Assembly (NCBI GenBank): GCA_024653775.1
Contig: JANLHZ010000250.1
Span: 595-64,594, forward strand
From: Planctomycetota bacterium
GTDB taxonomy: Bacteria; Planctomycetota; UBA8742; JACQVU01; JANLHZ01
Length of the DNA stretch: 64,000 bases
Reading direction: 5' to 3'
Positions 515 through 61,399 of the stretch are shown here, piece after piece. The notes under the pieces were generated by a model, which had not been told where the DNA came from, searched no databases, and saw only the letters and a program-made list of their open reading frames with translations. How positions within the stretch are numbered: position 1 is the first letter of the stretch; every line of letters begins with the position of its first letter. The position numbers and the translations under genes were made by a program.

Positions 515-3500
515 TCAGTACCCGAAAAGCTGGGTCCAGTAGCGGTTTTTGTCTTTCTCCGCCGCGACGCCGATGTAGTTGTAGTCCGCTATGAGAAGGT
601 TTCGATGGTGGCCGGGAGAGTGTTGCCAGCCGTCGAGCGCGCCTTGAGCGTCGAAGCCGTTCGGGTGCCAGGCGAGGTTCTCGCCGACTCTCCTTGTGTA
701 TCCCGCGCGCCTCGCCCTTTGAAGCGGATCGCGGCCAAATGGATGGCCGTCGATCTCGTGGTCGATGCGCCCGATTTCGCCCATATAGTCGGAGTGCCAC
801 CGCGACGCCTGCACGAGCTGTTCGCTGATCGCGACCGCGCCGACGCCTAGCATGAGCCTGTAGTCGTTGGTCAGTTCGACGAGTTTGTATTCTTCCGCGG
901 ACAGAAGTTCGCCCTCTTTATATGCCTCGTTCGCCTCGATAATCTGGTACGAGGTCTGAAGCCTCCGCCCGTCGCTCGAATTCAGCGGCTCCTTGTGCAC
1001 GCTGAAAATCACCTTGTCCGGAAACTCGGTCATCGAAAGCGAGCCGTATTCAGCCTTGTTCCAGTGTTCGCCCTGCGGGTCCGCCTCCTGAAGAATGGCT
1101 CGGATGTCCCCAAGCGACGTCGTCACGCTTCTGACGAACTCGGCGCGCTGTGGCTGAAGCTCCTCGACGACCTCTGACGGACGCTCCCAAATCTTGCGTA
1201 CGTCCTTCAGCGCGTCGTCGATCTTTCGCTGGTGCGCGATGAATCCCGCGTCGTTCTTGTCGTAGTCGGTCGGGTAGTTGGTTTCGTCGTTGATCAGCTC
1301 AATCGCTGTGTTCGCGTAGGCCTGATGCTGCCTGCGGAGCGTGCGGATCAGCTCCGGATCGCTGGCGTTCCGAAGGTTTCTGAGCTGCCTTTCGAACTTC
1401 TCGCTGACGAACTCCGCGATCTCCTTCGCGATGTTCGCGTCCCGCTGGCAGTAACGCGCGAGGGAGTTCCATGCCGCCTTCGAGGCTTCCTTTTCCCGCG
1501 AACCCTCCGCCTCGTCGAATCCGCTCTTGAAGGTTCGAATCCACTCCGGGACGCGCTCCGTATCGCGGAATTCCACAGCCTCGTCGCGGGTCATATACCT
1601 CGAAGCGGCGTCGTACCAGACGACCTCCGTCCCCTCGGGGAGATTTCGGCCCCTGCGGTACATTTCCGCGCTCCAATCCCGGTGCGCCGCGGAATCGAGC
1701 GTCCTAAGCTGCACGAGCGCTTCCATCCCGGCTTCGTCGTCACCCGCGCGGTAGCTGAACACCGCCATCCCGCGGAGTTCGTCCGCATCGAGCCCCCGTT
1801 TGCCGTCTTTCGCGATCGCCAGCGTAAACGTCGGCTGGAAGTCTTTCCACTTGAACGAGCTTCGCGTTCCGCCGCCGCCCATATTGACGGTGATCGATTC
1901 CTCGTCCGCTTCCATCGCGCGCATCGAATCGCGTGGGCCGAACCTCGCGCGGCTCGCGTCGCCTGCGTTCACCACGCGGATGATTCCGCGGATGAAAGCC
2001 GCACCGTAGCGGATGTCGCTCGCCTTCGTCTCCTCGCGAGAGCCGGAGCGAAACGTCACGCCTTCGAGCTTCGCAGCCGCACCGAGCCAGTTGTTCGCGG
2101 CCAGCAGCACTTCCGCGTCGGTCAGCGCCGCGCTTGGATCTATCGCGACCGGTGGCGGACTGATTCCGCTACCGCCGTTCGTTACAGAGGGCGGCTGCGA
2201 GACTACGCGCTCGGAAGGTCTCTCGAATCGACCTTCCTTGATGACGATTTCGATCCTGCCTTCGTTCTCGAAGCCGGGGAGCTTATGGAGCATCGTCTGT
2301 AAGAATCCGTCGTTAGACTGCCTTTCCGCGCCCTCGGTGAGATTCAGGTAAAGCTGGGCGAGCGCCCATTCCGCGGCTGGAAGCGCGTTATGCTCCATCA
2401 TGATAAAGACCATCGCGCGAAAGCGATCCGGGAGGCGCGTCCTGTCTTCGAGCGTAAACCGGAGCCATTCGCCGATCTGCATCGGATCGACGCGGCTCCA
2501 GCGCTCAGTCTGCTGTCGGGACATGTTCTGCACCTCGACTTCCTCGTCGCTGGCGCGCAGAGGAATCATCCGGGAGTTTTCTTCGGCAAACTTCGCCCGG
2601 AACGACGCGAATTCGCCGTGGTTGATGGACTGGATCATCGAGTCGAAAACGATTTTCATAAGACGGAGCTGATCGAGTCTTCTCGCAGCGTCCGGGTCCG
2701 GCTCCGTCCTGAGTCCCGCGGCTTCGTCGTACCTCGCGACCGCGTCGGTGAACCGATACGCCTGGGCGAACGTGTCTCCGGTGCTTATGAGGAGCGCGAT
2801 GGTTTCCTCGCTACTCATCACAGGGCCTCCGCCCTCTTCCGCGCTCATCGAGGAGCTTGTGAGGTCTACTTCCTGACCCGCGCGGTAATCCTCGGTGACG
2901 GTGCGGAGCGCTTCAAGCTCCCTCGCGACCCGTCTTTCATGCACAGTGCGCGCGACGTCCTCGAAAAGATCGAGGAGGACGATGCTTGCGAGTTCGAAAT
3001 TCGGGTTGTCCTTGATCCTTACTACGCCGCGCTCGTCGTAAAGCGGCTGCCCCGCTCCGTCGCGGCCTTCGATCCAGCAGTCCTGGCTCTGTTTCACCTT
3101 GCCCGAGTAATGCTGCGAAAGCCTGCCTGTAAGCTCGGTTTCCTTCGTGCGAAGGGTTTCGTCGAGATCGATACCGACCCGCGCCAGTTCGAGCTTGCGT
3201 TTCGAATTCAGCGCGATGAAGTCGTCGAGCACGGTCCGTGCCCTTGCGAAACTAAGCTTCGCGAGGTGCCCGTCGATGTCGCGACCCAGCGCGGAGATAT
3301 CCTCCTCGAATTCGCGGCGGATTTCGTCCTCGATTATCCTTATCTGGAGTTTCGCGTCGCCCGAGTATTCGCTTTCCGGATATTCCTGCATGAACCGTCT
3401 GTACGCTTCGATCTTGTCGACCCGGCTCACCAGCGCCGAAATCTTCTGGTACGCGATCTTCTCTTCGCTGATCGTGACTTCCTCTGTGACGCCAGTGAGA

Positions 3501-4627
3501 CTTGCGAGAACGCCCGCGACGTACTCCTGCGCGAAAATCAGAACGCCGACCGCTACGAAGATCAGCGCCGCGACTGGGACGTAGACCTTCGGTGAATTCA
3601 GCTTCCGCCAGCGCTGCCTTACCTTCACTTCGTCGTCGCGATGAGTCCGCGCGTACTCCTTGTCGCCGAAGGTTATCCGGCTGTCGCCTATCTCGATGAC
3701 GTCCAGATACCTTAGCGGGCGTTCGTTGATTTCCTCCCCTGCGATCCTCGTCCCGTTCGAGCTTTTGAGATCCAGAATGCGCCAGGTGCCGTCTATCTTC
3801 CTCACCTGCGCGTGATACCGCGAGCACTTGATCTCGTCCGGGATGCAGATGTCGTTGTCTTCCTCGACCCGACCGATTCGCACACAGTCGGCGCCGTCCG
3901 GGATTTCATACGTGAACGCCGCGCCCACGCTTTCGACATAGAGGACCAGCGTCTTTCCGTCGCCCTTCGTGCGGTGCGCGATACTCTTTCCGGGATGTTT
4001 GTCGTGCTTCTCGTGCTTTTCTTTTTCGGGCTTTTCGTTCCGGTCGTTTTTGCCCTCATCCTCATCTCTATTTCGATGGCGTTTCCGTTCGCGCTTCTCT
4101 TCCTCGAAAAGCTCCTCCTGATCTTCCGGAGCGTCCGCGGGCTTCTCCTCCTCCGGCTCTGCAACCTCCGCCTTCGCCTTCAGGGTTTTCGAATTTTCCT
4201 TTTCATCCTTCTTTTTCTTCGCGGGTTCGTCCTTCGCTTTTTTCGAAGTCTTTTCCGAGGGCTTTTCAGGCGGCTCGTACCCTGGCCTCGGCCCGCGCTT
4301 TTTCGGACTGCCGTTACACTCGAAAATCCCGTCGTCCTTGGTTTTCCCGTCGTTGATTCTGACGTGGAGCGAGACGAGCTTTTCCTTGGTTTTCTTGAAA
4401 GTGACCGTCAGCCCTTCGACGTCCGAAGCCTCGAGTCCGCGCATCGCGACGTTCCTCAGAAACTGCTCCTCGAGAAGCGAAATCTTTCCTTCCGCAAGAA
4501 GCTGCGTCGAAAACGAGTGCCCCGGCGCCTCGGATTGCCAGCGTTCGAAACTCTCCTCGATCTCACTTTGCTTCACAAGTCCGGTACGAACCGCGAGCAT
4601 TGCGACTATGAGGTTTGGATTCGCCAT
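515..4627 (-). CDS. large FHA-domain membrane protein with C-terminal CAP/SCP (YkwD-like) domain
   Basis: 1370 aa. FHA signature (VRIGR..DICIPD..SRYHAQV..DLKSSNGT), then one TM helix (VYVPVAALIFVAVGVLIFA), then ~900 aa extracytoplasmic. The C-terminus matches the CAP/PR-1 pattern (GENLAW...GWQHSPGHHRNLL...IGVA...YWTQLFG). A Lys/Glu-rich low-complexity region lies near the N-terminus. Confidence 0.9.
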   Translation of the reverse strand: MANPNLIVAMLAVRTGLVKQSEIEESFERWQSEAPGHSFSTQLLAEGKISLLEEQFLRNVAMRGLEASDVEGLTVTFKKTKEKLVSLHVRINDGKTKDDGIFECNGSPKKRGPRPGYEPPEKPSEKTSKKAKDEPAKKKKDEKENSKTLKAKAEVAEPEEEKPADAPEDQEELFEEEKRERKRHRNRDEDEGKNDRNEKPEKEKHEKHDKHPGKSIAHRTKGDGKTLVLYVESVGAAFTYEIPDGADCVRIGRVEEDNDICIPDEIKCSRYHAQVRKIDGTWRILDLKSSNGTRIAGEEINERPLRYLDVIEIGDSRITFGDKEYARTHRDDEVKVRQRWRKLNSPKVYVPVAALIFVAVGVLIFAQEYVAGVLASLTGVTEEVTISEEKIAYQKISALVSRVDKIEAYRRFMQEYPESEYSGDAKLQIRIIEDEIRREFEEDISALGRDIDGHLAKLSFARARTVLDDFIALNSKRKLELARVGIDLDETLRTKETELTGRLSQHYSGKVKQSQDCWIEGRDGAGQPLYDERGVVRIKDNPNFELASIVLLDLFEDVARTVHERRVARELEALRTVTEDYRAGQEVDLTSSSMSAEEGGGPVMSSEETIALLISTGDTFAQAYRFTDAVARYDEAAGLRTEPDPDAARRLDQLRLMKIVFDSMIQSINHGEFASFRAKFAEENSRMIPLRASDEEVEVQNMSRQQTERWSRVDPMQIGEWLRFTLEDRTRLPDRFRAMVFIMMEHNALPAAEWALAQLYLNLTEGAERQSNDGFLQTMLHKLPGFENEGRIEIVIKEGRFERPSERVVSQPPSVTNGGSGISPPPVAIDPSAALTDAEVLLAANNWLGAAAKLEGVTFRSGSREETKASDIRYGAAFIRGIIRVVNAGDASRARFGPRDSMRAMEADEESITVNMGGGGTRSSFKWKDFQPTFTLAIAKDGKRGLDADELRGMAVFSYRAGDDEAGMEALVQLRTLDSAAHRDWSAEMYRRGRNLPEGTEVVWYDAASRYMTRDEAVEFRDTERVPEWIRTFKSGFDEAEGSREKEASKAAWNSLARYCQRDANIAKEIAEFVSEKFERQLRNLRNASDPELIRTLRRQHQAYANTAIELINDETNYPTDYDKNDAGFIAHQRKIDDALKDVRKIWERPSEVVEELQPQRAEFVRSVTTSLGDIRAILQEADPQGEHWNKAEYGSLSMTEFPDKVIFSVHKEPLNSSDGRRLQTSYQIIEANEAYKEGELLSAEEYKLVELTNDYRLMLGVGAVAISEQLVQASRWHSDYMGEIGRIDHEIDGHPFGRDPLQRARRAGYTRRVGENLAWHPNGFDAQGALDGWQHSPGHHRNLLIADYNYIGVAAEKDKNRYWTQLFGY

Positions 4628-4647
4628 ATTTCACACACACGGATTTT

Positions 4648-4829
4648 AGGCCTCGGAACAAAATAAACTACCGTTTCTGCATCACATCTTCACACCGTAT
4701 TCATTCCGCGCTCGGTTGCCAAATCCTCATCGGAACTTTGGCTACGACTCCGGTTTGGCTCTCTCGCGCAAAATGAATCTCGCGTAAATCTGAGCGCATA
4801 AATCGATACCTTATTTTGTTCCGAGGCCT
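4648..4829 (+). repeat. ~180-nt covarying hairpin element, copy 1
   Basis: Terminal helix AGGCCTCGGAACAAAATAA / TTATTTTGTTCCGAGGCCT encloses a ~120-nt core shared with 5672-5851 (inverted) and 32544-32729. Confidence 0.75.
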
Positions 4830-4863
4830 TACTATCTGGGGCGTTCGATATCTTCCGTCTCGA

Positions 4864-5634
4864 TCAGCCGAAGTCGAAATCCTGATCCGGGCCGAAGGTG
4901 AGCTTGAAATCGACCTTGCCTTCGTCGAGATTGAAACTAGTAGGAATGCACTCCTCGTCCTCCGCGGTTTTCTTGTTGCCGACGATGATTTTGGTCTTGC
5001 CGATGGTGATCTCGTCGCCCCAGTTGAGCGCCTGCTGGGAGACCCTTTCGCCGTTGACGCAGGTTCCGTTGGTGCTTTTCAGGTCGACGAGAACGAATTC
5101 GTCTCCCATCTTTTCGAGTTTGCAGTGGTTCCTCGACGATTTGACCTCGTCGATCTGGATGTCGTTACCTTCGCCTCGTCCGACGGTGATGACTTTGGTC
5201 GCGTCGTCAATCGAAATGAATCGATCGCGAATACCGTCCAGCACCTCGACGAAAAGGTCTTCCCTCCGCGCGAGCTTCCCGCCGCGCATTTTCGGCATCG
5301 GAGTTCCCGGAGGGGAAGCTTTCTGTACTCCAGGCGGCGCGGAAACCGCGTCTTCGAAAATCAGTCTCGTCGCGCCTATCGTGAAAACCATTCCGTGCTT
5401 GAGCTTGACCTCGGCGATCTTTTCGCCGCCGATCTTGGTGCCGTTGCTGCTTCCGAGATCCTTTAGCACCCAGTCGCTGCCGCTACGAACGAGCGCGCAA
5501 TGTTTTCGGCTCGCCTTTCCCTCCGCGAGCTGAAGGTCGTTGCCTTCCTCCCTGCCGATGCTGAACGCGGTCGCCAGCGTCGGAATGTTGACTGCTCTTT
5601 CCTGGCCGCCGGAATGAATTTTGAGTGTTGCCAC
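4864..5634 (-). CDS. tandem FHA-domain protein
   Basis: 256 aa with two FHA signatures (FSIGREEGNDLQL..SRKHCALV..LKDLGSSNGT and ITVGRGEGNDIQI..SRNHCKLE..LVDLKSTNGT). Confidence 0.9.
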   Translation of the reverse strand: MATLKIHSGGQERAVNIPTLATAFSIGREEGNDLQLAEGKASRKHCALVRSGSDWVLKDLGSSNGTKIGGEKIAEVKLKHGMVFTIGATRLIFEDAVSAPPGVQKASPPGTPMPKMRGGKLARREDLFVEVLDGIRDRFISIDDATKVITVGRGEGNDIQIDEVKSSRNHCKLEKMGDEFVLVDLKSTNGTCVNGERVSQQALNWGDEITIGKTKIIVGNKKTAEDEECIPTSFNLDEGKVDFKLTFGPDQDFDFG

Positions 5635-5671
5635 CGATTACCTCTGGTTCGAATAACTGGAACTGGAATAA

Positions 5672-5851
5672 GGAGTCGTGTCAAAATAAGTTTACGAATT
5701 TCACGCTCAGATTTGCATCAGGTTCGTTTTGCGCGAGGAAGCCCAACCGGAGGCGTAGCTGTAGTTCCGGTGAGGATTGGGCGACCGAGCGCGGAACGAA
5801 GATGATGTGAAGATGTGATGTGAAAACGGCAACTTATTTTGTCACGACTCC
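5672..5851 (-). repeat. ~180-nt covarying hairpin element, copy 2 (inverted relative to copy 1)
   Basis: Terminal helix GGAGTCGTGTCAAAATAAG / CTTATTTTGTCACGACTCC. The core aligns to the reverse complement of copy 1 over ~120 nt. Confidence 0.75.
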
Positions 5852-6024
5852 TAAGGCTTGTAAAATGATGTCACAGGACCTGAATTTGTCAATGATATTT
5901 GGTTCAGAAAAGCATTACAAGCGCAAAAGCGGCCCCGTGGGTATCGCGAGGCAAGACTGCTTTGCGGGACTTCAGGCAGGCCGCGGCCAAGGCGGGATTC
6001 GGAATCGAAGTCGCGCGTTCGATT

Positions 6025-8898
6025 TTATGACGGTTTCGCGAACCTTCCCGACAGCTTTCTCCCGAGTTTCACGATCTTCCGGAAGGTGTCGTCCTTCTCG
6101 GACAAACCCGCCACGAAATCCTCGAGGCTCTCCTCCGCCGCGGCTTTCTTGTGCTCCCGGCGGAATTCGGCGATGGAAATCTGTTTCGCCCGCTTGATCG
6201 CCTTCAACGCCTGGTCGATGTTCCCGAGTTTATAAAGGAACAGCGCGACCTGAAGCGCGACGTCTCTTCGTGGCACGACGACGTCCATTGCGGGATAACG
6301 CAGAATCCGCATCAGGCGCTTAAGTCCTTCCGCGTAGTTGCTGCTCTTGATGCAGAGGTTCGCGCTCATCACGAAGTACTTCGCCGCGATGTCGTAGAAC
6401 CCGAGTCCCTCGAAATCCGCCGCGGCTTCTTCGAGGACGCTTTCCGCGGCGCTCTGCTGGTTCATCCATTCCCGGAGTTCCGCGAGTTCCACGCTGAAGT
6501 CGATCACGGTTACGGGCGCGGAGAGTCGATCTATCTCGCGGATCGAATCGTTAAAGTAGCCTAGTCTTGCGCTAACGACGATCATCGCGCTCCCGTACAC
6601 CACCTCGTAGACGAAATCGTCCGCGTGCCCGAGAAAGGATCGCGCGCCGCTCAGGTAGGTCCGCGCGAGCCTCAGTCCGACGTTGTCGGGCAGAATCGAT
6701 TTGAACCGCTTGAATCCCTGCGCGATCTTCTCGAGCGGCGTGTTCGCGTCCATGGGCTTATTCGCGAGCAGCTCGGGCGAGTTCATCGCGGAGACGAGGT
6801 AGTAAAGGCCGACGCTCGCGTACATCCGGAAGCGAAGGGCCGGGTCTTCCGCGAACATGTTCCTTTGAAGAAACCTGCGCGACTCCTCGAGAATCTGCAC
6901 GAAGCACTTCTCGCTCGCCGACACCAGCGGCAGCGTCTTCTTGACGAGTTCCAGCGGGCTTTCGATGTTCGCCAGTAGCGGCTGCTCCTTGAAAAGCAGC
7001 AGCGCCGCGATGAAGCTCGAAAGGAACATCGTCCGTGAAACGATCTCGTCTCCGGAAAGCTGGCTTTCGATCACGCTTTCGTGGATCTTCTCCGCGATGG
7101 CGTAGTAAGGCGAGCGCTTCGTCACGGTCGACCACATTCTCTGAATCTTCGAGAACTCGGTCATATAGTCGCTCTGGATCGCTTTCGCGCTCTTCGTCAG
7201 CGTTCGATTCCATTTTTTCGATTCCTCGCCATCGAGCAGTGGGAACTCACGGACCCTCCCGTACGCGAGAGCGACGTACGCGTATGCGAGATTCTTCACA
7301 TGGGGCGATTCCTCCCCGCACCACCCGTCGATTATCTTCGAGCGAAACCCCTCTCTGGTCGAAGTCACGTTCGACGTCAGCTTAGTGAGCGACGAGAAGT
7401 CGAGGTGACTCTCGACGATGTTCTCGATCTCGATGCCCGCCCGGGTGAAAACCTTCTGCGAATCGTGGGCCTGATCTTCCGATTCGAACCGCGCGATGAA
7501 AATCCGTCCGCCCGGAAGCGTCGCGGCGATCGTGTTCACGATCTGTTCCGACAGCGGGTTCTCCTCGCTGAGAAAGAGCGCGGTCTTCCTTCCTCGGACG
7601 AGGTTCTCCACAAGCCGTCCGGCGGACCGCGAAAGAAACGATCTGTGGAACGGGCCGTGAATCTCGCTTATCTCGGAGCTGGAAGCGTCGACGAAACTCT
7701 CCGGCTTGTCCGCGGAGCCGTAGACCTTGAGCAGAGTCACCTCGTCGCGCACGGCTTCGTTCGCGAGCTCGTTCTCGATTTCCTCGTGAGTCGAGATAGT
7801 GCGGTACGAAACCCCCTCGGCGTCGAACGCGCGTTCGATAGCGGTGTCGATGCGTGTAGTCACGATCCGCCTCAGCCTGCCCTCTTTCACGACCTTGCAG
7901 AGCATATCTTCGAAGGACGAAGGCCCGAGCGCGCCGAGTTTTCCGATAAGCTCGCGGGTCGCGCTTTCTGAAACGTTCGAAACGAGGTGCAGAAGAAACG
8001 GACTCGCCGCGACGTCGCTCACGTCGAGGGTCAGCCCGTTCGTCTGGGAGAACGCCGGGTCCTTCGAAAGCGCGTCCGCGATCTCCTTCGTCACGGCGGT
8101 AAGCGTGACGTCCTGCGCGTCCGCGCGCAGGTGCGACGTGAAAACCAGCGTCTCGATCTCGCGGAGAAGGTCGATTTCCTCGCTTTCCTCGCTGTAACTG
8201 CTGAGCGCGCTCGAAATAAAGTCGTCGTCGTAGAACATCGTGTCGCCAAGGGCGCCTTCGCCCAGCAGTTCCGCGTCGAGAATCTGCTCCATCCCCGGAA
8301 TCGAAAGCGCCTCGCCGCTGTCCTCCGCGCTCAGATCCGCAAGATCAGCCCTGGACAACTCCTCCTCCGGCTGCGGCATGTCCGCGAACGGCTCCTCGAA
8401 TTCGATCCCGTCATCCGCGGCTTCCGCAATCTGAGGAGCCTTCGACACGGGGAATTCATCTAGTTCCGGCGGTTCGTCGAACTCGGCGTGGGAAAACTTA
8501 GAAACTATCTGAGGCTCAGGGAGTGCAGACGCCTCGTCTGCGCCAAAGCCTTCAGACGTCTCGTTCGAAGGCTCCGAAAAGTCGGAAACTTCTGCTTGAG
8601 ATAGTTTCTTGGAGGGTTCTTCCGGAATTTCGGTCTGCGCGGACGCGACGGCTGCTTTCTTCGCCGGCGCGGTTTCCGCAGCGGGAACCGCGTCTTCGGT
8701 TTCGCGGGTCAAAACTGTCGCCGCCGCCTTTTTCGGCGCTAGGGTTGCGGTGGGAATCGCTCCGTCTTCGAATTCGCTCATGGCGGGGATTCTGCACCTC
8801 GCCATGCAGGTCTTGCACACGAACGGTTTCCCGGCGTACTCTTCCTTCGCTCGCGATGCTTTACCGCACGATGGGCATAAAAAACGAAGCGTGGTCAT
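6025..8898 (-). CDS. zinc-ribbon / acidic linker / degenerate SIR2-like / TPR-like protein (function unknown)
   Basis: N-terminal CPSCG..CKTC zinc ribbon, ~230-aa acidic linker, a central region with SIR2_2-like motif order but altered catalytic residues (VTTRID, KVYGS), and a helical-repeat C-terminus. The start at 8898 is preferred over 8940 because of the AGGGGA RBS. Confidence 0.8.
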   Translation of the reverse strand: MTTLRFLCPSCGKASRAKEEYAGKPFVCKTCMARCRIPAMSEFEDGAIPTATLAPKKAAATVLTRETEDAVPAAETAPAKKAAVASAQTEIPEEPSKKLSQAEVSDFSEPSNETSEGFGADEASALPEPQIVSKFSHAEFDEPPELDEFPVSKAPQIAEAADDGIEFEEPFADMPQPEEELSRADLADLSAEDSGEALSIPGMEQILDAELLGEGALGDTMFYDDDFISSALSSYSEESEEIDLLREIETLVFTSHLRADAQDVTLTAVTKEIADALSKDPAFSQTNGLTLDVSDVAASPFLLHLVSNVSESATRELIGKLGALGPSSFEDMLCKVVKEGRLRRIVTTRIDTAIERAFDAEGVSYRTISTHEEIENELANEAVRDEVTLLKVYGSADKPESFVDASSSEISEIHGPFHRSFLSRSAGRLVENLVRGRKTALFLSEENPLSEQIVNTIAATLPGGRIFIARFESEDQAHDSQKVFTRAGIEIENIVESHLDFSSLTKLTSNVTSTREGFRSKIIDGWCGEESPHVKNLAYAYVALAYGRVREFPLLDGEESKKWNRTLTKSAKAIQSDYMTEFSKIQRMWSTVTKRSPYYAIAEKIHESVIESQLSGDEIVSRTMFLSSFIAALLLFKEQPLLANIESPLELVKKTLPLVSASEKCFVQILEESRRFLQRNMFAEDPALRFRMYASVGLYYLVSAMNSPELLANKPMDANTPLEKIAQGFKRFKSILPDNVGLRLARTYLSGARSFLGHADDFVYEVVYGSAMIVVSARLGYFNDSIREIDRLSAPVTVIDFSVELAELREWMNQQSAAESVLEEAAADFEGLGFYDIAAKYFVMSANLCIKSSNYAEGLKRLMRILRYPAMDVVVPRRDVALQVALFLYKLGNIDQALKAIKRAKQISIAEFRREHKKAAAEESLEDFVAGLSEKDDTFRKIVKLGRKLSGRFAKPS

Positions 8899-9033
8899 CG
8901 ATTCCCCTGTGAGACGGTTAGTGTCCCACACGCTGATCATATTGTCAAGGTAAGGAAGACACCGCCGAGGTCGCAGGTGAGCGTACGCCGCATGTCAGAA
9001 GTTCGTCGCGGTCTTTGCCTGGATGAATCCGCT

Positions 9034-9477
9034 TCAACGGGGCGCGGGCAGCGGGATGTACTCCGGCACCGGATCGTGAGACCAGACCCGCACCCACCTG
9101 CCGGGAATCCAGACCTGCGTCGTCACAGTGTGCGGCACGAGTCTGCGGACGAGCCTGATTTCGTACACCGGAACTCGCTCCAGGCGAATGACCTCGCGTC
9201 TGCCCGATGGGGCGTAGGTGTCGGTCGCGGGATCGTAGCGTTCTGGCCCGCCGGAGGAGGTCTGGATCACGATTTCGCGCCATTCCCACCCGATGACGAT
9301 CTGCTCGCGGACCCATTCCTCGCGGTATTCGGTTCTTGTTCTTGTCTCGTAGTGCCCCGGTTGCCAGACCCATTCCCAGCCTCCCGGGTGGCGACCTCCC
9401 GTCCAGTCGGTTTCATCCTGCGCTGAAGCGACAGTTGCAAAGGAAAGAACGATTATCGCTGCCAAAACGTACTTCAT
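9034..9477 (-). CDS. secreted Trp-rich repeat protein
   Basis: Signal peptide MKYVLAAIIVLSFATVASA; repeated W.PGHW / WEW motifs; GGAG RBS. Confidence 0.75.
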   Translation of the reverse strand: MKYVLAAIIVLSFATVASAQDETDWTGGRHPGGWEWVWQPGHYETRTRTEYREEWVREQIVIGWEWREIVIQTSSGGPERYDPATDTYAPSGRREVIRLERVPVYEIRLVRRLVPHTVTTQVWIPGRWVRVWSHDPVPEYIPLPAPR

Positions 9478-9548: not shown

Positions 9549-11165
9549 TTACTTTTTAAGAGCCTCGAGCGTTTTGACGTAATCGGTGCGTTTGCGCATT
9601 CCGGTCATGGCGTGCTCGCGAGACTTCTTTATGGAGTGCGTGTTGTGTACGCAATCGTAGCCGAAGATTTCGAACAGAGGTTTGTATCCGCCGGAGCCGT
9701 CGCAGATTTCGACGTCGTGCATGGTGAACTCCGTCGGGTGGTCGTAACCCGCAGCGTGGGTAAGCGCGAGGACTTCCTTCTTCCAGCTTTCCATATATTT
9801 AAAGAGTCGCTGGGACTGGAACTTCGGATTCACGCCGCCTTCCAGCCATTTGTTCTGAGTCGCGATCCCCGCGGGGCAGTGACCTGTGTGGCATCTTTGA
9901 GCCTGTATGCACCCGATGCTGAGCATCGCTTCCCGAGCGACATTGATTATATCTACTCCAAGGCTGAATGCGAACACCGCCTTGTCCGGGAATCCCAGTT
10001 TCGCGGAACCGACCCAGACGATCTTGTCAGAGATTCCCTTATCGAGGAATATTTTATAAACCCTCGAAAAACCGGTGACGAACGGAAGCGACACGTGGTC
10101 CGAGAAAGTGAGCGGAGCGCTGCCTGTCCCGCCCTCGCCGCCGTCGATGGTGATGTGGTCCGGGCCAATATCCGGGTGTTTCGACATATACTCCGCAAGC
10201 TCGTGCCAGAACTCGAGCTTGCCGACTGCGCTTTTGATCCCGACGGGCCTTCCAGTGACCTTGGCGATCTTCTCTATAACTTCGCACATTTCGGGAACCG
10301 ACGTGAACACCGAGTGACTGTTCGGACTGATGCAGTGTTCCCAGGGCTTCACGCCGCGGATTTTCGCGATCGTCGGCGTAACCTTCGGCGCTGGAAGAAC
10401 GCCGCCCTTGCCGGGTTTGGCGCCCTGCGAAAGTTTCAGCTCGAACGCGCGGATAAGCGGATGCTCGTCGCACTGCTTCGCGAGTTTCTCGTAGCTCAGT
10501 TTGCCGTCGTCGTCCCGGCAGCCGAAGTACCCGGTTCCGATTTGGAAGACCACGTCCGCACCGAGTTTGTGATAGGGTGAAAGTCCGCCCTCGCCGGTGT
10601 TGTGGTACGCGTTCGAGAGTTTGCAGCCGAGGTTCAGCGCGGAATGGGCGTTTCCGCCAAGAGCGCCGTAACTCATCGCGCTGACGTTGATGATGGAGCC
10701 GGGGCGGAACGTGAGTTCGCGTTTGTGCCATTCTCCGAGCACTTTCCAGGAAGGCAGGTCGAAGTGGTGCTCCTTGACGGAATGAGCGAAGCTGCCTTCG
10801 CCTTTCGGGAACGAACTGTGCTTGATGATGAAGTAACCTTCCGATTCCAGATCGTCGTCCGTTCCGAATCCGAAGAAGTTGTTCTCTCCCGCGGCGCTAC
10901 GATAAATCCAGTCGCGCTGGCTGCGGTTGAACGGTTTTTCTTCGCGGTTATGCGCAACGATGTACTGGCGAAGCTCCGGACCCACTGCAATCAGAAGGTA
11001 ACGCAGGTGTCCGACGAGCGGAAAGTTCCGGACTATCGATCTTCGAGAAAACAGCCGGTCAGCGAGCGCGACTCCGATGACGACAATCGCGATACCGAGC
11101 AGAATCTGCCAGACGAGTCCGATAGATATGAACCAGTCGAGAACCTTGTTACCAAGAAACACCAT
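9549..11165 (-). CDS. FMN-binding glutamate synthase family protein (GltB domain-2-like) with N-terminal TM segment
   Basis: Motifs NVSAMSYGALG, HNTGEGG, KLSQGAKPGKGGVLP, ITIDGGEGGTG. Confidence 0.9.
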   Translation of the reverse strand: MVFLGNKVLDWFISIGLVWQILLGIAIVVIGVALADRLFSRRSIVRNFPLVGHLRYLLIAVGPELRQYIVAHNREEKPFNRSQRDWIYRSAAGENNFFGFGTDDDLESEGYFIIKHSSFPKGEGSFAHSVKEHHFDLPSWKVLGEWHKRELTFRPGSIINVSAMSYGALGGNAHSALNLGCKLSNAYHNTGEGGLSPYHKLGADVVFQIGTGYFGCRDDDGKLSYEKLAKQCDEHPLIRAFELKLSQGAKPGKGGVLPAPKVTPTIAKIRGVKPWEHCISPNSHSVFTSVPEMCEVIEKIAKVTGRPVGIKSAVGKLEFWHELAEYMSKHPDIGPDHITIDGGEGGTGSAPLTFSDHVSLPFVTGFSRVYKIFLDKGISDKIVWVGSAKLGFPDKAVFAFSLGVDIINVAREAMLSIGCIQAQRCHTGHCPAGIATQNKWLEGGVNPKFQSQRLFKYMESWKKEVLALTHAAGYDHPTEFTMHDVEICDGSGGYKPLFEIFGYDCVHNTHSIKKSREHAMTGMRKRTDYVKTLEALKK

Positions 11166-17220: not shown

Positions 17221-17248
17221 AGGATTCAGGATCGAGGATTCAGGATTA
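17221..17248 (+). repeat. 4 x 7-nt AGGATNN tandem repeat
   Basis: AGGATTC AGGATCG AGGATTC AGGATTA lies immediately after the flagellin terminator. Confidence 0.5.
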
Positions 17249-17463
17249 AGAGACTAACTTAAGCACCTGGGACCGCGGTCGTCTATGTCCGCAAAAGCCG
17301 TCAAACGTCTCGTCCGGAGGCTCCGAAATCTCAAATTATTCTTCTTAAGATAGTTGCCAAGTCGTGGCGTGAAGAGTCGCGCGGTGGGCATTTTCAACTT
17401 GGATTGTCGGTGAGCCGAGATTGCGATAAACTTGTCGTATTCCATAAACACTAGGAGACGACG

Positions 17464-18985: not shown

Positions 18986-20116
18986 ATGCGACATGTGGAA
19001 CAGTCGTTGATAGAACAGGCCAGGATCACAGAGTTCGAACTCGAAATACGTAAACAATTGGTCGGTCTGACCGGCAAAGACGCGAAGGTTCTTTTGACCG
19101 GCAGGCCATTTATCGAAAAGGAGGCCGAGCAGATCGTCGACGATCTGTACGCTACGTTGATCGGCATTCCCACAGTCGTGCTTCTCATAAGCGACTCGGA
19201 GACAATGTCGAGGCTGAAGAGTACGCAGCGCGATTATATAATCGATCTGTTCAGCGGCGTTTACGACCTCGAATACGTCAATAACAGGCTTCGCATCGGA
19301 CTCGTACACAAACGAATCGGCGTCCAGCCGAGGTTTTTCCTCGCCGCGATGTACAAGCTAAGGTCGCTCATCGTGGCAGTTATCGAAAAGCGGGCCGGCG
19401 TTACGCATTTCCGCAGGATGATGATCGACGCGCTTGAAAAGCTTATGTACTTCGACGCGTCGTTAATTTTTGAAAGTTACATCGGCAGTCTTATCAGCGA
19501 GATTCAAATCGCGAAGGACAAGTCGGACGAATACGCCCTGACTCTCGAGAGCGTCGTAAGGGAGCGTACAAGGCAGCTCGAGGAGCTTTCGCGCAGGGAT
19601 CCGCTGACCGGAGTTTTCAACAGGCGGTATCTTGCCGAGGATCTCGAAACCGCGATCAAAGCCGCGCAGAGGAGGTCCGAACCTATTTCGTTCGTTTATC
19701 TCGACATTAACGACTTCAAGGCGCTGAACGACAAACTCGGACACCAGCATGGCGACAGCGTCCTTCGCACCGTTGGAGGCGTGCTGAGCGAGATTTGCAG
19801 GCCAGAAGACGGTTGCTATCGCTACGGCGGCGATGAGTTCTGTATAATTCTGAAGAACTGTCCGGAATCCAGCGCGAGGGAACATTTCTGCGCAAGGCTG
19901 ACGAAAGAAGTCGCTTCGAAGCTCGGTGGCGTGACGCTAAGTTACGGCATCTATACAACGGGGCCGCGAGTGTTCGACGACGTAAACACCATCGTTACCG
20001 CTGCTGATAAAAGGATGTACGAGGCGAAGGAGGCGCAGAAGCATCGTGCTGCTGCGAAGAAAGATACCAAGATCACTCACAGGAAAATGCTAAGAAGCGA
20101 ATATGGAGCCGTTTGA
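18986..20116 (+). CDS. globin-coupled sensor diguanylate cyclase
   Basis: N-terminal protoglobin/sensor-globin pattern (RLRIGLVHKRIGVQPRFFLAAMYKL) followed by GGDEF (RDPLTGVFNRRY...YRYGGDEFCIIL). Confidence 0.9.
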   Translation: MRHVEQSLIEQARITEFELEIRKQLVGLTGKDAKVLLTGRPFIEKEAEQIVDDLYATLIGIPTVVLLISDSETMSRLKSTQRDYIIDLFSGVYDLEYVNNRLRIGLVHKRIGVQPRFFLAAMYKLRSLIVAVIEKRAGVTHFRRMMIDALEKLMYFDASLIFESYIGSLISEIQIAKDKSDEYALTLESVVRERTRQLEELSRRDPLTGVFNRRYLAEDLETAIKAAQRRSEPISFVYLDINDFKALNDKLGHQHGDSVLRTVGGVLSEICRPEDGCYRYGGDEFCIILKNCPESSAREHFCARLTKEVASKLGGVTLSYGIYTTGPRVFDDVNTIVTAADKRMYEAKEAQKHRAAAKKDTKITHRKMLRSEYGAV

Positions 20117-31472: not shown

Positions 31473-31625
31473 ACTGATATCATAATAATATCATACGCGC
31501 CACTGCCCGGCGAAGTTCGAAGGCGAAAAATAAATTTTCGCGTTCTGTTCGAACAATGTGGCGGTTTGTCGGCGCAGGTAAGACGATTGCGCACAGGGCA
31601 ATCGCATTTAGAATACCACATTTTA

Positions 31626-31702
31626 TTCGTACCGTCTACGAATTATTTGTACTGTTATTGTCGGCGGACAAAATAATACATTAAATTCGTAGACGGTACG
31701 AA
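31626..31702. repeat. TTCGTA-N5-TACGAA palindromic element, paired copy (locus a)
   Basis: TTCGTACCGTCTACGAA (31626-31642) and its complement TTCGTAGACGGTACGAA (31686-31702) flank an inner TTATTGTC/GACAAAATAA hairpin. Confidence 0.65.
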
Positions 31703-31719
31703 TTTAATGTTGTATTGCG

Positions 31720-32559: not shown

Positions 32560-32729
32560 AATAACCTTTCAACCTTGCATCACATATTCACACCATCTTC
32601 AATCCGCACTCAATCGTCAAATCCTCGACGGAATTACGGCTACGACTGCGGTTTGACTCAATCGTGCGAATCGAACCTGATGCAAATCTGAGCGCAATTT
32701 TTGAATGTTTATTACGTTACGCGTCCTAA
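32544..32729 (+). repeat. ~180-nt covarying hairpin element, copy 3
   Basis: Terminal helix TTAGGACGTGTAACATAATAA / TTTATTACGTTACGCGTCCTAA. The core aligns to copies 1 and 2. Confidence 0.7.
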
Positions 32730-33757: not shown

Positions 33758-33765
33758 TAAAGTGT

Positions 33766-43928: not shown

Positions 43929-43957
43929 GCCGTCAAACGAGACGTTTGACGGCTTTT
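43929..43957 (+). terminator. orphan plus-strand intrinsic terminator
   Basis: GCCGTCAAACG-AGA-CGTTTGACGGC followed by TTTT. No plus-strand ORF ends here. Confidence 0.65.
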
Positions 43958-44000
43958 GCGGACGATGACGTCCGCGGTCCCGGGTGCCTACGATAGTTTC

Positions 44001-44627
44001 TTAGTCCTCGAATTCGCAGACGTCGCTGTGCAGAACGACGTGCTGGGCGCCGTCCGACCGGATCAGCCGCGTTTCGATTATGAAATGCTCGCGGAACTTA
44101 AGCTCCGGACCTTCAGGCGAGAACGCAAGGGCGTAACACCGGGTGGAGACTACAAGCGCGCAGTTCTGTCCGTTTTCCCTCTCGACCTCGTTTTTCGCGA
44201 GTCCGGGAATACCTTCGACCGCGGACTCTATTTTCGACTCGATCGCGCGAACGAGCGCTTCGATCCGAGACTTTCTGCGAGATTCAAGCTCGAACTTGAC
44301 GACCTCGGATCGCGCCTGCTCAGAGTCGATTTCGTGTACCAGAGGCTGCGCGAGGGCGACCGTGATCCGCCCGATTTTTCTATCGCGGACCAGGGTTACA
44401 ATCGCGTTCCGGAGATCGCCTTCGATGAATTCCGTCACTTCCGCCGGAAGCTCCGGCTCCACGTTTTGCCGTGGGGACGTTGGCGCTTCCGAGGCCATCG
44501 GATTCCGCTCGGCGACCACCTCGATCCGCGGCGGCAGTGTCGCGGGTTCGTTCGTTACAGCGCAGGCGGAAAGCCTCAGCCAGAAAAAAAAGAAAGCCAA
44601 AGTCACTATTCCGCGCTTTTGAAGCAA
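44001..44627 (-). CDS. lipoprotein (unknown function)
   Basis: Signal peptide with lipobox LSAC. TTG start (or GTG six codons downstream). Confidence 0.7.
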   Translation of the reverse strand: MLQKRGIVTLAFFFFWLRLSACAVTNEPATLPPRIEVVAERNPMASEAPTSPRQNVEPELPAEVTEFIEGDLRNAIVTLVRDRKIGRITVALAQPLVHEIDSEQARSEVVKFELESRRKSRIEALVRAIESKIESAVEGIPGLAKNEVERENGQNCALVVSTRCYALAFSPEGPELKFREHFIIETRLIRSDGAQHVVLHSDVCEFED

Positions 44628-44640
44628 ATTTCCGATCCCC

Positions 44641-44808
44641 TACTCCCTACTCCCTACTCCCTGTTCCCTACTCCCTGTTCCCTGCTCCCTACTCCCTTCT
44701 CCCTACTCCCTGCTCCCTTCTCCCTACTCCCTGCTCCCTACTCCCTGCTCCCTACTCCCTTCTCCCTTCTCCCTACTCCCTTCTCCCTACTCCCTTCTCC
44801 CTACTCCC
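44641..44808. repeat. 24 x 7-bp tandem repeat TNYTCCC (GGGARNA on the coding strand)
   Basis: Counted units are TACTCCC, TGTTCCC, TGCTCCC and TTCTCCC. The array fills the spacer between the stop at 44812 and the start at 44627. Confidence 0.95.
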
Positions 44809-44811
44809 TTC

Positions 44812-46317
44812 TTATTTGCCACCGTCGACGTAAGTCCCGCCTGACATTTCAGCGAGCCCCTGCAGAAGAATCTTGTCGTGGTCGGCGCCGATGCCCACGG
44901 TGTTGACGATCAGATGGCGGGAGAGGTTGAAATCGTAGAACGCGTTCAGATGCTCTTCCGCGGTGGCGTACTTGCTCAGCATCGGGACGCCGTCGGTGAG
45001 GAAGTAGATCGTGTCCGGGCTGTTCTGATAGTGGTAGGGATGGTCGATGTTCGCGCGTACCTCCTGGACGTCCGTGGTCCGCGCGGCTTCGACGAGCGCG
45101 TCCCAAATGTTCGTCGCGCCCATCGGCCCGAGCTTTTTCATGTAGTCGATCGCTTCCTGGCGGTTCGCGGGAGTCGCGAAAACGAGCTTGTCTTTCCAGC
45201 GCGAAACTCCGCTCGAATACACGACGAGATTGAACCGCGTTCTCTCCGGAAGGAACCACGCGGCGCGGGTGAATTCCGCGACCGCGAGATCGAACTTGCT
45301 GAAAATCCTCGCCGGCTCTATCGGCGGCGGGCCGGTGACGTCGGGACGGAGCGGGTCCGCTGTGAATTGCCCGCGGAATCTGTCGCGAACGCTCGTGTCC
45401 ACAGGATCGGACATACTCCCGGAAATGTCGATTACGAAACAGATGCGATCGCTCGAAATCTTCATTCCGTAGTACGTCGGCGGCTGGGGCTGTGCGTAGT
45501 CGCCACCGCCGGGGACGAACGCGTTCCCCGCGGCGCGGTTTCGAAGGACGCTGCGCCACCAGCTTTCCCACGCGTCGGGGTCGGGACCGAGATTTCCGCT
45601 GGTGATCCGCTTCAGCGCGTCCACGAGAATTTCGCTCACGAGTTTGCTGCTAGATTTCCGCAGCGCTGAGCAGAGCTGGAATACGTGCTCCTCCTTCGCG
45701 GTTTTCGATAGCGCCCGCGCGCAGCCGTGCTGAAGCGCCCACATATCGTGATCGATCAGCTCGAAGAGTTTGTCTACGTAGAAGTCGTCTTCGGAAAATG
45801 CGACCGCGTCGACCGCCGCGATGAGGAGCTGATGGTCCTCGGAATCGAGGAACTTCGTCAGAGTCTCGCGGACCTTGTCGCTGCCTTTGATATGCCCGAT
45901 CGCGAGAAGAAGCTGCGCCCCGAGTTCGTACGTCAGGCCGCGGCGCGAAAGGTACTCGCAGAGGTCCTCTATAGATTCCTGAAGAGTCGTCTCGCCGAGC
46001 GCGGATACGCAGTCTCTCCGAACTTTGTAGCTCTTGTCACGGGCGAGAATGTCGAGGAGCAGGTTGGTTGCTTCCGCCTTCTCGATTCCAGAGAGCATTC
46101 TCACAGCGTCGATTCGGAGCTGTTCGAGCCGCGCGTATTCGACGCTGTACTGCGGAGTCCCCGTGGGCGCGAGTTCCACGGACCCCGCCTCGTACATCTG
46201 GGCGACCTGCCTTCGAAGTTGCTGCCATTCCCTGCGGTCCATTTCTTCCGCGAGCGCAATGGGCGCGAAGTTCGCGAGTCCAATGGCTATGAACAAAATA
46301 ATTCTGAGGTTTGGCAT
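44812..46317 (-). CDS. HEAT-repeat / von Willebrand factor A domain protein
   Basis: Signal peptide, HEAT-like repeats (VRRDCVSALGE), and the VWA MIDAS motif (ICFVIDISGSMSD). Confidence 0.85.
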   Translation of the reverse strand: MPNLRIILFIAIGLANFAPIALAEEMDRREWQQLRRQVAQMYEAGSVELAPTGTPQYSVEYARLEQLRIDAVRMLSGIEKAEATNLLLDILARDKSYKVRRDCVSALGETTLQESIEDLCEYLSRRGLTYELGAQLLLAIGHIKGSDKVRETLTKFLDSEDHQLLIAAVDAVAFSEDDFYVDKLFELIDHDMWALQHGCARALSKTAKEEHVFQLCSALRKSSSKLVSEILVDALKRITSGNLGPDPDAWESWWRSVLRNRAAGNAFVPGGGDYAQPQPPTYYGMKISSDRICFVIDISGSMSDPVDTSVRDRFRGQFTADPLRPDVTGPPPIEPARIFSKFDLAVAEFTRAAWFLPERTRFNLVVYSSGVSRWKDKLVFATPANRQEAIDYMKKLGPMGATNIWDALVEAARTTDVQEVRANIDHPYHYQNSPDTIYFLTDGVPMLSKYATAEEHLNAFYDFNLSRHLIVNTVGIGADHDKILLQGLAEMSGGTYVDGGK

Positions 46318-61371: not shown

Positions 61372-61399
61372 AAAATACTCCGTGATTTCCCACTCCGCT

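Follow-up and report, generated by a model that had tools for sequence, protein, structure and literature searches.

A lineage-restricted planctomycete locus encoding a predicted SIR2-like pseudoenzyme beside two FHA-domain proteins, one of them with a CAP domain

Comparable systems and layout of the locus

Actinobacterial FHA readers, some of them anchored in the membrane, dock on phosphothreonines lying in disordered stretches of envelope proteins, and their genes lie adjacent to kinase and phosphatase genes (pknA/B-pstP). The locus described here, from an uncultured bacterium of groundwater type, has three genes, A, B and C, and the FHA domains of B and C have their best NCBIfam and PDB matches among these actinobacterial scaffolds (FhaA, FhaB/FipA, Rv1747 and GarA/OdhI), reaching 107 and 36 bits against the FhaB/FipA model, with all matches below the equivalog cut-offs; however, no kinase or phosphatase gene accompanies them within 64 kb, and the actinobacterial scaffolds lack both a CAP ectodomain and a SIR2 partner. 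A second resemblance is to the defence-type SIR2_2 (PF13289) NADases, such as DSR2 and the SIR2_2-TPR proteins P0002, P0003 and P0011, in which a Rossmann core is followed by a helical TPR or solenoid region, as is predicted for A. Unlike these enzymes, A has replacements at GAGxS, the catalytic Asn, the catalytic His and GFSGxD, carries an additional N-terminal Zn ribbon and an acidic linker of ~200 aa, and is the only one of the SIR2_2 relatives examined to adjoin FHA genes. DSR2 consists of an N-terminal SIR2 domain, a MID region and an alpha-solenoid CTD; A has no sequence similarity to it outside the SIR2 core and is likened to it by Foldseek at TM-scores of 0.15-0.2.

Two further groups resemble C. 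The bacterial CAP/SCP proteins include the YkwD family and DalA of Rhodobacter sphaeroides, a peptidoglycan-binding CAP lipoprotein of the outer membrane found in association with the divisome (PMC10470522). The C-terminal 130 aa of C form a standard CAP domain of this kind, with GENLAW, SPGHHRN and RYWTQLF motifs, but DalA and YkwD are small and either secreted or lipid-anchored, whereas in C the domain forms the tip of a bitopic protein of 1370 aa whose FHA domain is cytoplasmic. YscD/CdsD, TagH and GltG, like C, have one TM helix between a cytoplasmic FHA domain and a large periplasmic part; only their FHA domains match C, and the genes for their partner machines are absent from the 64 kb.

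The features of the locus are as follows, with positions given in the whole 64-kb stretch of DNA that was analysed (the window).

6025..8940, minus strand: gene A, protein with Zn ribbon, acidic linker, predicted dead SIR2_2 domain and helical repeats (ORF and translation)
8785..8898, minus strand: CPSC...CKTC zinc-ribbon-like motif at the N-terminus of A, aa 15-52 (CxxC-16-CxxC read directly)
8167..8784, minus strand: acidic linker of A, probably disordered, aa ~53-258 (composition; 9 Thr, 22 Ser)
7471..8166, minus strand: SIR2_2-type Rossmann domain of A, without the catalytic residues (profile, alignment, AF2, Foldseek)
6028..7470, minus strand: C-terminal region of A, all-helical and TPR/solenoid-like, aa ~491-971 (AF2 secondary structure; weak TPR/ARM_TT21 matches)
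5669..5854, minus strand: hairpin repeat r1, copy between A and B, in the orientation opposite to that of the copy between B and C
4864..5634, minus strand: gene B, soluble tandem-FHA protein with an acidic/aromatic tail (Pfam FHA E 1.3e-38, two stretches)
4637..4835, plus strand: copy of r1 that takes up the greater part of the B-C gap, 28 nt past the B stop and 17 nt ahead of the C start
515..4627, minus strand: gene C, bitopic membrane protein of 1370 aa (ORF, Pfam, hydrophobicity and composition)
3662..3955, minus strand: cytoplasmic FHA domain of C, GR / SRYH / NGT intact (Pfam 2.3e-12)
518..907, minus strand: C-terminal CAP/SCP domain of C, YkwD-type, predicted periplasmic (Pfam CAP 1.1e-15)

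A reading made from the sequence alone had described three co-directional minus-strand genes, and these were found where it placed them, together with nearly all of the domains it named (ORFs, translations, Pfam). Protein A comprises 971 aa when counted from the first ATG (8940) and 957 aa from the start at 8898, which has a Shine-Dalgarno-like AGGGGA 5 nt upstream and is the likelier one. The A-B gap measures 390 nt and the B-C gap 236 nt, and without its r1 repeat the latter shrinks to ~45 nt, a spacing typical of genes inside an operon. A scan of the gap sequences gave no intrinsic-terminator-like site on the minus strand of either gap, and a sigma70-like site (TTGACA-16-CATCAT, 5892-5865) was found in the A-B gap just upstream of the r1 copy there. 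On this layout the A-B-C operon of the sequence-only reading is a possible one, with co-transcription likely for B and C. A is tied to B-C by position only, and may be an independent gene since the gap between A and B is long and holds both the promoter-like site and a repeat. The sequencing runs in which the locus sequence occurs are DNA runs only. B and C are the only FHA genes within the window and the only two of the three genes to have a common domain type.

The sequence-only reading had seen no kinase or phosphatase partner, and this was borne out for Hanks kinases and PP2C phosphatases throughout the window: Pfam showed neither a Pkinase nor a PP2C domain in any scanned ORF of at least 200 aa, and no kinase or PPM motif occurred in stop-to-stop frames of at least 60 aa. 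The window includes a gene for a TonB-dependent receptor, so the organism is taken to be diderm. The claim that the cluster corresponds to no named system also held, with PADLOC giving a weak match to the SIR2 segment of A only (candidate PDC-S65) and none to B or C, PHROGs a match to the CAP domain only, and NCBIfam generic domain matches only. Orthologues of A, B or C were absent from every collection searched (1.8-5.8 billion proteins for A beyond its SIR2 core and for the C ectodomain), and the genes around distant B-like and A-like proteins bore no relation to this cluster.

Domains of the three proteins

The central part of A was matched by the Pfam SIR2_2 profile over aa 358-457 at 22.3 bits (E 1.5e-4), which does not reach the gathering threshold of 24.5. 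A word-indexed search with full-length A gave no match, the acidic linker having probably swamped the candidate list, and it was replaced by an exhaustive phmmer search with aa 255-971. This returned 19 relatives, all covering aa ~300-440 of A; SIR2_2 was present in each of the 10 that were scanned (E 1e-8 to 1e-17), and the detectable relatives are SIR2_2 or SIR2_2+TPR proteins. The region falls among SIR2_2 proteins and not in an unrelated family. Two conserved blocks can be aligned, RRIVTTRIDTAIERAF with RAIVTTNFDxLIERAF and LLKVYGSADKPES with LLKIHGSADxPxT of the relatives. At the catalytic positions A has TSH (aa 268-270) for GAG, so that the GAGIS loop of the relatives becomes TSHLR, Arg363 for the Asn of TTN, and Tyr407 for the His of HG, with SRSAGR at the position of the GFSGxD motif. 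When A was aligned with the 19 relatives it was the sole deviant row at the GAGxS, TTN and HG columns, in agreement with the sequence-only proposal of a SIR2_2-like region with substituted catalytic positions. Tyr407 aligns with H146 of KomC, the residue mutated in PDB 9xvc 'KomC(H146N)'.

The AF2 model of A is of low overall confidence (mean pLDDT 54), and in it aa 255-480 form alternating strands and helices in beta-alpha-beta order with a core pLDDT of 72-92. Foldseek with this model recovered the SIR2 domains of KomC, ThsA and DSR2 at probability 1.0, the top matches being DSR2 chains (E 8e-6) at the TM-scores given above; by profile and fold together the closest solved relatives are KomC, DSR2, ThsA and FAM118B. 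The SIR2-like domain of A is real and, judged from its sequence, almost certainly inactive, and with the catalytic His absent, NADase activity of the DSR2 kind, triggered by phage tail-tube protein, is not expected. One detail of the earlier assignment failed: LLHLVSNVS (aa 316-324), taken as the GAGxS equivalent, sits in a helical insert, and both alignments and model place the counterpart of beta-1 and the GAGxS loop at LVFTSHLRA (aa 265-273). SAMD9 was considered as a precedent for an inactive Sir2 domain and dropped, as its paper makes no such statement.

Outside this core, the proposed N-terminal zinc ribbon is present as a CxxC..CxxC pattern, with Pfam ribbon matches below threshold only. 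Composition likewise upheld the acidic linker, at ~200 aa, with 10-13 D/E against 0-2 K/R per 40 residues. The TPR-like helices at the C-terminus are all helices in the AF2 model, with weak TPR/ARM-like Pfam matches at aa 815-933, and this helical part has a pLDDT of 70-79 only at aa ~815-885 and mostly below 50 elsewhere. An exhaustive search of 1.84e9 representatives found no homologue of A beyond the SIR2 core, phmmer with the C-terminal 717 aa found no match among PDB sequences, and a JGI metagenome scan with A gave no match.

Protein B (256 aa, GTG start with AGAGGT upstream) consists of the two FHA domains that had been predicted for it, FHA1 at aa 4-95 and FHA2 at aa 125-218, which score 131.6 bits over both domains against PF00498 (cut-off 20.7). 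Its translation retains the phosphothreonine-contacting residues in both (GR / SRKH / NGT and GR / SRNH / NGT), and its nearest non-self homologue is 31% identical. Looking up the exact B and C products returned no record.

Protein C begins with a helical region (aa 1-75) and a K/E-rich stretch (aa 76-222), followed by an FHA domain (aa 225-322), a TM helix (aa 346-378), a helical ectodomain of ~860 aa (aa 379-1240) and the CAP domain (aa 1241-1370). The Lys/Glu-rich tract (aa ~100-220 by composition), FHA domain, TM helix, large periplasmic region and CAP/SCP domain of the sequence-only reading were all recovered by Pfam, composition and hydrophobicity. The Pfam FHA match spans aa 249-314 (47.6 bits, cut-off 20.7), the domain matches the Rv1747 FHA domain in PDB at 4.7e-9, and it is 39-40% identical to each FHA domain of B. 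The GR, SxxH and NG residues by which characterised FHA domains bind phosphothreonine are intact in the sequences of all three FHA domains. The single hydrophobic span (aa ~346-378) is preceded by RQRWRKLNSPK, which implies a predicted N-in topology. At the other end, the CAP match (PF00188, aa 1251-1368) scores 58.9 bits against a cut-off of 21.1 and covers profile positions 2-117 of 117, with further matches to TIGR02909 YkwD (1.6e-13) and to the SCP structure PDB 4ifa. The NCBIfam DalA model matches aa 1217-1367 weakly (22 bits, cut-off 200), and the likeness of C to DalA is generic CAP similarity.

The N-terminal likeness to the c-di-GMP-binding T2SSE_N/MshEN domain once suggested for C found no support, as aa 1-90 gave no match even at E<=10. 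The T2SSE_N/MshEN motif is a tandem of RLGxx(L/V/I)(L/V/I)xxG(L/V/I)(L/V/I)xxxxLxxxLxxQ with the copies ~5 residues apart; the two L..G.I....E stretches seen by eye in C are without the Arg and Gln and lie ~25 residues apart. An exhaustive protein search with the C ectodomain found nothing except C itself, and a GTDB scan with C gave no match; a GTDB scan with the SucD-like protein reached 66% identity at best, with matches in many phyla. The single-sequence AF2 model of the C ectodomain (mean pLDDT 35) was unusable and was left out of the fold search. An apparent duplication inside C, pairing aa ~660-715 with ~880-935, is not significant: shuffled sequences reached its score in 28 of 300 cases, and BLAST gave no self-hits.

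A possible phosphothreonine-docked scaffold and its alternatives

Our main reading, to which we give a probability of about 0.35, is that A, B and C form a lineage-specific, phosphothreonine-dependent scaffold spanning the inner membrane. C would be anchored N-in, with its FHA domain toward the cytoplasm and a helical ectodomain of ~1000 aa, including the terminal YkwD-type CAP domain, extending into the periplasm; B would be a soluble adaptor with two FHA heads, and A a cytoplasmic platform which, because its sirtuin fold could not use NAD+, would act by binding, through the pseudo-SIR2 domain and the TPR-like solenoid. Thr residues in the disordered tracts (9 in the A linker, 6 in the charged tract of C) might be phosphorylated by a Hanks-type kinase whose gene lies elsewhere; the three FHA domains could dock on them, and B, by bridging two phosphosites, would link A with C. 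The CAP domain may contact an envelope ligand, perhaps peptidoglycan, to which the CAP lipoprotein DalA binds. We infer the contacts between the three proteins, the kinase and the CAP ligand. A bolder version, in which a defence-type SIR2-solenoid protein without NAD+ chemistry has been re-wired as a phosphothreonine-docked scaffold and linked by a tandem-FHA adaptor to an FHA/CAP membrane protein, giving a new envelope-to-cytoplasm signalling or immunity module, appears distinctly unlikely.

That the large ORFs are chance frames or pseudogenes of a GC-rich genome is scarcely credible, even with ~1,350 aa lacking homologues. Frames stay open over 971 and 1370 codons and have bona fide FHA, CAP and SIR2_2 cores embedded in them, and base composition is that of housekeeping genes (GC3 0.72-0.77 across the cluster; for A and C GC3 0.76-0.77 and GC2 0.41-0.42), A at 0.77 being like other genes of the window. 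When A and C were compared with related low-depth metagenome contigs, 26 of the 33 differences fell at codon position 3 (P about 1e-7) and 25 were synonymous (7/8 in A, 18/25 in C). As these differences are mostly synonymous third-position changes, A and C are real, native genes under purifying selection. The same data bear on a more serious contender, doubtful in our view, by which the locus holds two unrelated units: only B and C would cooperate, and A would derive from a stand-alone SIR2_2-TPR conflict protein of anti-phage type, having decayed or been co-opted, and would lie upstream by chance. It draws on the SIR2_2 or SIR2_2+TPR nature of all A relatives, on the defence NADases KomC, DSR2 and ThsA (plus FAM118B) as the nearest solved ones, on the weak PDC-S65 match, on the 390-nt gap with its promoter-like site and on the gene surroundings of the five relatives inspected for them, all standalone and none (0/5) with an FHA neighbour; two of the five lie beside TIR_2 genes, and the island that contains one of the five also has CHAT, a toxin-antitoxin pair and a fragment of an integrase. 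A is not decaying, however, judging by its open frame, synonymous differences and native codon composition; its ribbon and long Thr/Ser-bearing acidic linker are absent from the relatives and would suit FHA docking, and no mobile-element or defence genes were found in its flanks.

Those flanks also count against an active abortive-infection or conflict system, an improbable explanation in which the A solenoid would sense an invader protein as DSR2 does, FHA-phosphothreonine signalling would replace NAD+ depletion and C would be an envelope-directed effector. The predicted order of SIR2 domain then helical solenoid in A is DSR2-like (PMC11850899), and FHA and S/T kinase domains are counted among the effector and adaptor domains of bacterial conflict systems (PMC8195603); yet SIR2 effector chemistry is gone from A, the Foldseek TM-scores are just 0.15-0.2 from a model of mean pLDDT 54, no defence island flanks the cluster, B and C have no PADLOC match, and CAP domains are not known as bacterial toxins. 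A very improbable role for C is as the FHA-bearing inner-membrane part of a trans-envelope machine (YscD/CdsD of T3SS, TagH/Fha of T6SS or GltG of gliding), with A and B as accessories. C shares with such components the FHA-TM-large periplasmic region arrangement, and the FHA domains match Yop-YscD_cpl and, below cut-off, the GltG and TagH models, but the matches are confined to the FHA domains (GltG 72.5 and 25.1 bits against 650, TagH 63.4 against 120), and the 64 kb hold no secretion (T3SS, T6SS) or gliding (Glt) genes, only genes for flagellins, which are not known to work with FHA partners.

If A, B and C do assemble into the proposed scaffold, a sirtuin-fold pseudoenzyme would have been recruited into bacterial Ser/Thr-phosphorylation signalling, and a membrane protein coupled through FHA would present a CAP domain at its outward-facing end; we know of no earlier example of either. 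It would, if true, also show how defence-type SIR2-TPR proteins can be recycled after loss of catalysis. At present this is a single lineage-restricted locus, of value mainly as a well-documented orphan.

Repeats within and between the genes

A covarying element had been noted in both gaps in opposite orientations, and this proved correct: r1 is a multi-copy repeat of ~190 nt, with a third copy in the window at 32535-32727, and compensatory changes were found in 18 of its 59 predicted pairs. Its depth was ~50x, as against ~3x for the genes, in run X1. Rfam gave no matches in the window or the gaps, and a JGI metagenome scan with the r1 core pattern gave none. A second dispersed repeat, r2, has intergenic copies at 17242-17360 and 43890-44008 that were aligned to an in-frame copy of ~90 nt inside the A linker (8541-8630), and the locus is a case of repeats shaping intergenic and coding sequence alike.

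Gene starts, composition and coding status

The leftmost 11 kb of the window contained five minus-strand ORFs running in one direction, including the three genes under study (A, B and C), listed here with the dispersed repeats r1 (a hairpin of about 190 nt) and r2 (a second family).

515..4627, minus strand: gene C, 1370 aa
4864..5634, minus strand: gene B, 256 aa, GTG start with AGAGGT upstream
6025..8940, minus strand: gene A, 971 codons from the first ATG (8940)
9034..9477, minus strand: small secreted Trp/Arg-rich protein, 147 aa, directly upstream of gene A
9549..11165, minus strand: glutamate-synthase-domain protein
4637-4835 and 5669-5854: r1 copies in the B-C and A-B gaps, in opposite orientations
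32535-32727: third r1 copy
17242-17360 and 43890-44008: related copies of r2

Within gene A, an ATG at 8898 has AGGGGA 5 nt upstream and opens a product that begins directly with a CPSC...CKTC ribbon; because of these two features, the 957-aa product proposed by the sequence-only reading appears likelier than the 971-aa one. The zinc ribbon of that reading was retained as a CxxC-16-CxxC pattern, with profile matches that were sub-threshold only. The upstream 9034..9477 gene, whose product carries the signal peptide MKYVLAAIIVLSFATVASA and gave no family match, may perhaps form one transcription unit with gene A. Codon-position GC in A, B and C (GC3 0.72-0.77, GC2 about 0.41) equalled that of the window's flagellin, TonB-receptor, cysteine-synthase-like and SucD-like genes, so that all three are native by composition.

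One groundwater metagenome run contained low-depth contigs that match parts of the locus at 90-99% identity. Of the 33 differences listed within A and C, 26 fell at third codon positions (binomial P about 1e-7 vs equal position use) and 25 were synonymous. Because of this bias, both large ORFs encode proteins, and purifying selection acts on them in two or more related populations, which contradicts the explanation that they are not genes at all.

The SIR2_2 domain of gene A

Exhaustive phmmer searching of 1.84 billion cluster representatives with aa 255-971 of gene A gave only 19 matches (best E 3.9e-6, none below 1e-10), all spanning aa ~300-440, and found none for the ~480-aa helical C-terminus beyond the SIR2 core. 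All ten relatives scanned were SIR2_2 proteins (1e-8 to 1e-17), several with TPR repeats behind the domain, and gene A itself scored 22.3 bits against Pfam SIR2_2, just below the 24.5 cut-off; the central region was thereby placed nearest to SIR2_2 and in no unrelated family. The flanking blocks RRIVTTRIDTAIERAF and LLKVYGSADKPES are strikingly conserved, aligning with the relatives' RAIVTTNFDxLIERAF and LLKIHGSADxPxT respectively, and gene A is the sole deviant row of the alignment at each functionally critical column.

SIR2_2 motifs and the aligned residues of gene A
GAGIS: TSHLR
PNAxH: PSSFE
Asn of TTN: Arg363
His of HG: Tyr407
GFSGxDL: LSRSAGRL

A profile of the region matched KomC, FAM118B, DSR2, ThsA and classical sirtuins in the PDB, and the Tyr407 column aligned to KomC H146, the residue altered in the deposited inactive mutant KomC(H146N). 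From these alignments, gene A carries a genuine SIR2_2 domain that is predicted to be catalytically dead, in agreement with the substituted catalytic positions noted earlier. The AF2 model, built from a 20-sequence alignment, was poor overall (mean pLDDT 54) with a confident SIR2 core (pLDDT 72-92) of alternating Rossmann strands and helices. It placed LVFT as strand beta-1 and LVFTSHLRA (aa 265-273) as the GAGxS equivalent, displacing the LLHLVSNVS (aa 316-324) previously put in that role. Foldseek ranked DSR2, KomC and ThsA top at TM-scores of just 0.15-0.2, and the order of SIR2 then solenoid that the model of gene A would share with DSR2 is a lead, not a demonstrated relationship. PADLOC returned a weak match of the SIR2 segment to the candidate PDC-S65 and no other match.

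Part of the acidic linker of gene A seems to derive from an in-frame insertion of r2, because the ~90 nt at 8541-8630 (aa ~104-134) are 75-80% identical to this otherwise intergenic family; metagenome contigs of other contexts also match 8555-8608. The genome also encodes a normal sirtuin that has no relation to gene A, since a canonical, intact SIR2 gene (PF02146, 3e-47) sits next to a hybrid response-regulator/histidine kinase gene at 41390-43272; base 42514 belongs both to the stop of one gene and to the start of the other.

Genes B and C and the search for partners

The two FHA domains of gene B (Pfam, E 1.3e-38) and the single FHA (aa 249-314, 2.3e-12) and full-length CAP (aa 1251-1368, 1.1e-15) of gene C were recovered as the sequence-only reading had them. 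NCBIfam and PDB searches gave generic relatives only, below equivalog cut-offs (FhaB/FipA, OdhI/GarA, Rv1747 and EmbR for FHA; YkwD-type for CAP), and the CAP domain was the sole PHROGs match. Each of the three FHA domains retains the GR, SxxH and NG(T) residues through which characterised FHA domains contact phosphothreonine, and that of C is 39-40% identical to either domain of B. Neither a further FHA gene nor a paralogue of A or C was present in the window.

Gene C has one hydrophobic span (aa ~346-378), as expected of its single TM helix; because basic RQRWRKLNSPK precedes it and an acidic stretch follows, an N-in topology is predicted, which implies a cytoplasmic FHA domain and about 1000 aa in the periplasm. 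The organism has an outer membrane, since the window encodes a TonB-dependent receptor. The single-sequence AF2 model of the ectodomain was unusable (pLDDT 35; 'mostly helical' at most), and a suspected internal duplication in C was dropped as not significant. The T2SSE_N/MshEN likeness once suggested for the N-terminus was abandoned: T2SSE_N did not match the first 90 aa even at E<=10, and the L..G.I....E pair misfits the MshEN motif and spacing.

No Pkinase or PP2C domain was found among 45 window ORFs scanned with Pfam, which covered every ORF of at least 200 aa judged likely to be a real gene, and HRDxKxxN, DFG...APE and PP2C motifs were absent from all window stop-to-stop frames of at least 60 aa, so that no kinase or phosphatase partner is in view, as had been remarked. 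The sole PPM-type regex match, DGIFE inside C, was by chance.

Among 5.8 billion clusters, the C ectodomain (aa 380-1245) matched only its own singleton, carried by one 74-kb contig. The best match to gene B other than itself was 31% identical, C had no match in GTDB species genomes, and A had none in JGI metagenome contigs. The SucD-like housekeeping protein reached 57-66% identity at best, in genomes across Bacillota, Alphaproteobacteria, Planctomycetota and others, and the lineage is therefore unsampled.

Transcription, proposed function and neighbouring features

The three r1 copies fold as a single long, imperfect hairpin whose terminal inverted repeats covary, with compensatory changes at 18 of 59 pairs, confirming the oppositely oriented covarying element described in the gaps. 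No Rfam family matched r1, and its depth of ~50x in the groundwater run, against ~3x for neighbouring genes (about 15-fold), makes it a multi-copy dispersed repeat, which appears to be MITE/REP-like or a structured RNA; it is present in both orientations. In the 236-nt B-C gap it leaves 28 nt after the B stop and 17 nt before the C start, about 45 nt in all and typical of operons, and no minus-strand terminator-like site lies within either gap. Of the three-gene operon originally claimed, B-C co-transcription is thus likely; A is only a candidate member, as the 390-nt A-B gap is still about 200 nt long without r1 and has a TTGACA-16-CATCAT site immediately upstream of it.

The best-supported reading, held tentatively at a probability of about 0.35, is that A, B and C form a scaffold that spans the inner membrane, depends on phosphothreonine and is specific to the lineage. 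Gene C would connect its cytoplasmic FHA domain with a periplasmic ectodomain that ends in CAP, B would act as a bivalent FHA adaptor, and A would provide a non-catalytic SIR2/solenoid platform whose Thr/Ser-bearing acidic linker is suited to FHA docking, with the kinase coming from another locus. By analogy with the peptidoglycan-binding CAP lipoprotein DalA (PMC10470522), the CAP domain may have a polymer of the envelope as its ligand.

The main rival, possible and itself rather doubtful, holds that only B and C are partners and that A, transcribed on its own, descends from a stand-alone SIR2_2-TPR conflict protein and has been co-opted. Five distant SIR2_2(-TPR) relatives of A stand alone without FHA neighbours. 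Two of them adjoin TIR_2 genes, and one of these two lies within an island that also holds a toxin-antitoxin pair, an integrase fragment, a kinase and CHAT; two distant tandem-FHA proteins have unrelated gene neighbourhoods. Two further readings are considered improbable: an active defence system with a non-NADase output and, slightly less likely again, a part in secretion or gliding machinery. Every single domain of the proposed scaffold is already known; the combinations in A (ribbon, acidic linker, dead SIR2_2, solenoid) and C (FHA, TM, giant ectodomain, CAP) matched no described system, in line with the earlier remark that no named system corresponds. The nearest known kinds are FHA-based signalling and SIR2_2-TPR proteins, and A-B-C is a single locus in a single unsampled lineage.

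Elsewhere in the window, a protoglobin-GGDEF diguanylate cyclase lies at 18986-20116 and a fusion of GmrSD_N with Schlafen AlbA_2, apparently defence-related, at 59101-61455. Two pairs of direct repeats, 78-150 nt long and 83-90% identical, are positioned at the 5' ends of unrelated genes or a short way before them and may represent common leader or promoter sequences: 59006-59083/61420-61497 (SucD-like and GmrSD/AlbA_2) and 48944-49091/54857-55004 (flagellin-like and ComF-like). Paired palindromic boxes of 40-45 nt (ACATTATATTCGTACCGTCTACGAATTT...) in three intergenic regions (31612-31716, 33673-33766 and 46408-46447) resemble operators or a further small family of repeats. A tandem array at 44610-44833, of about 30 units of the 7-nt CCCTACT/CCCTGCT/CCCTTCT, is located at the 3' end of the unassigned ORF 43956..44906, and the terminal part of a HEAT-VWA gene on the opposite strand overlaps it.
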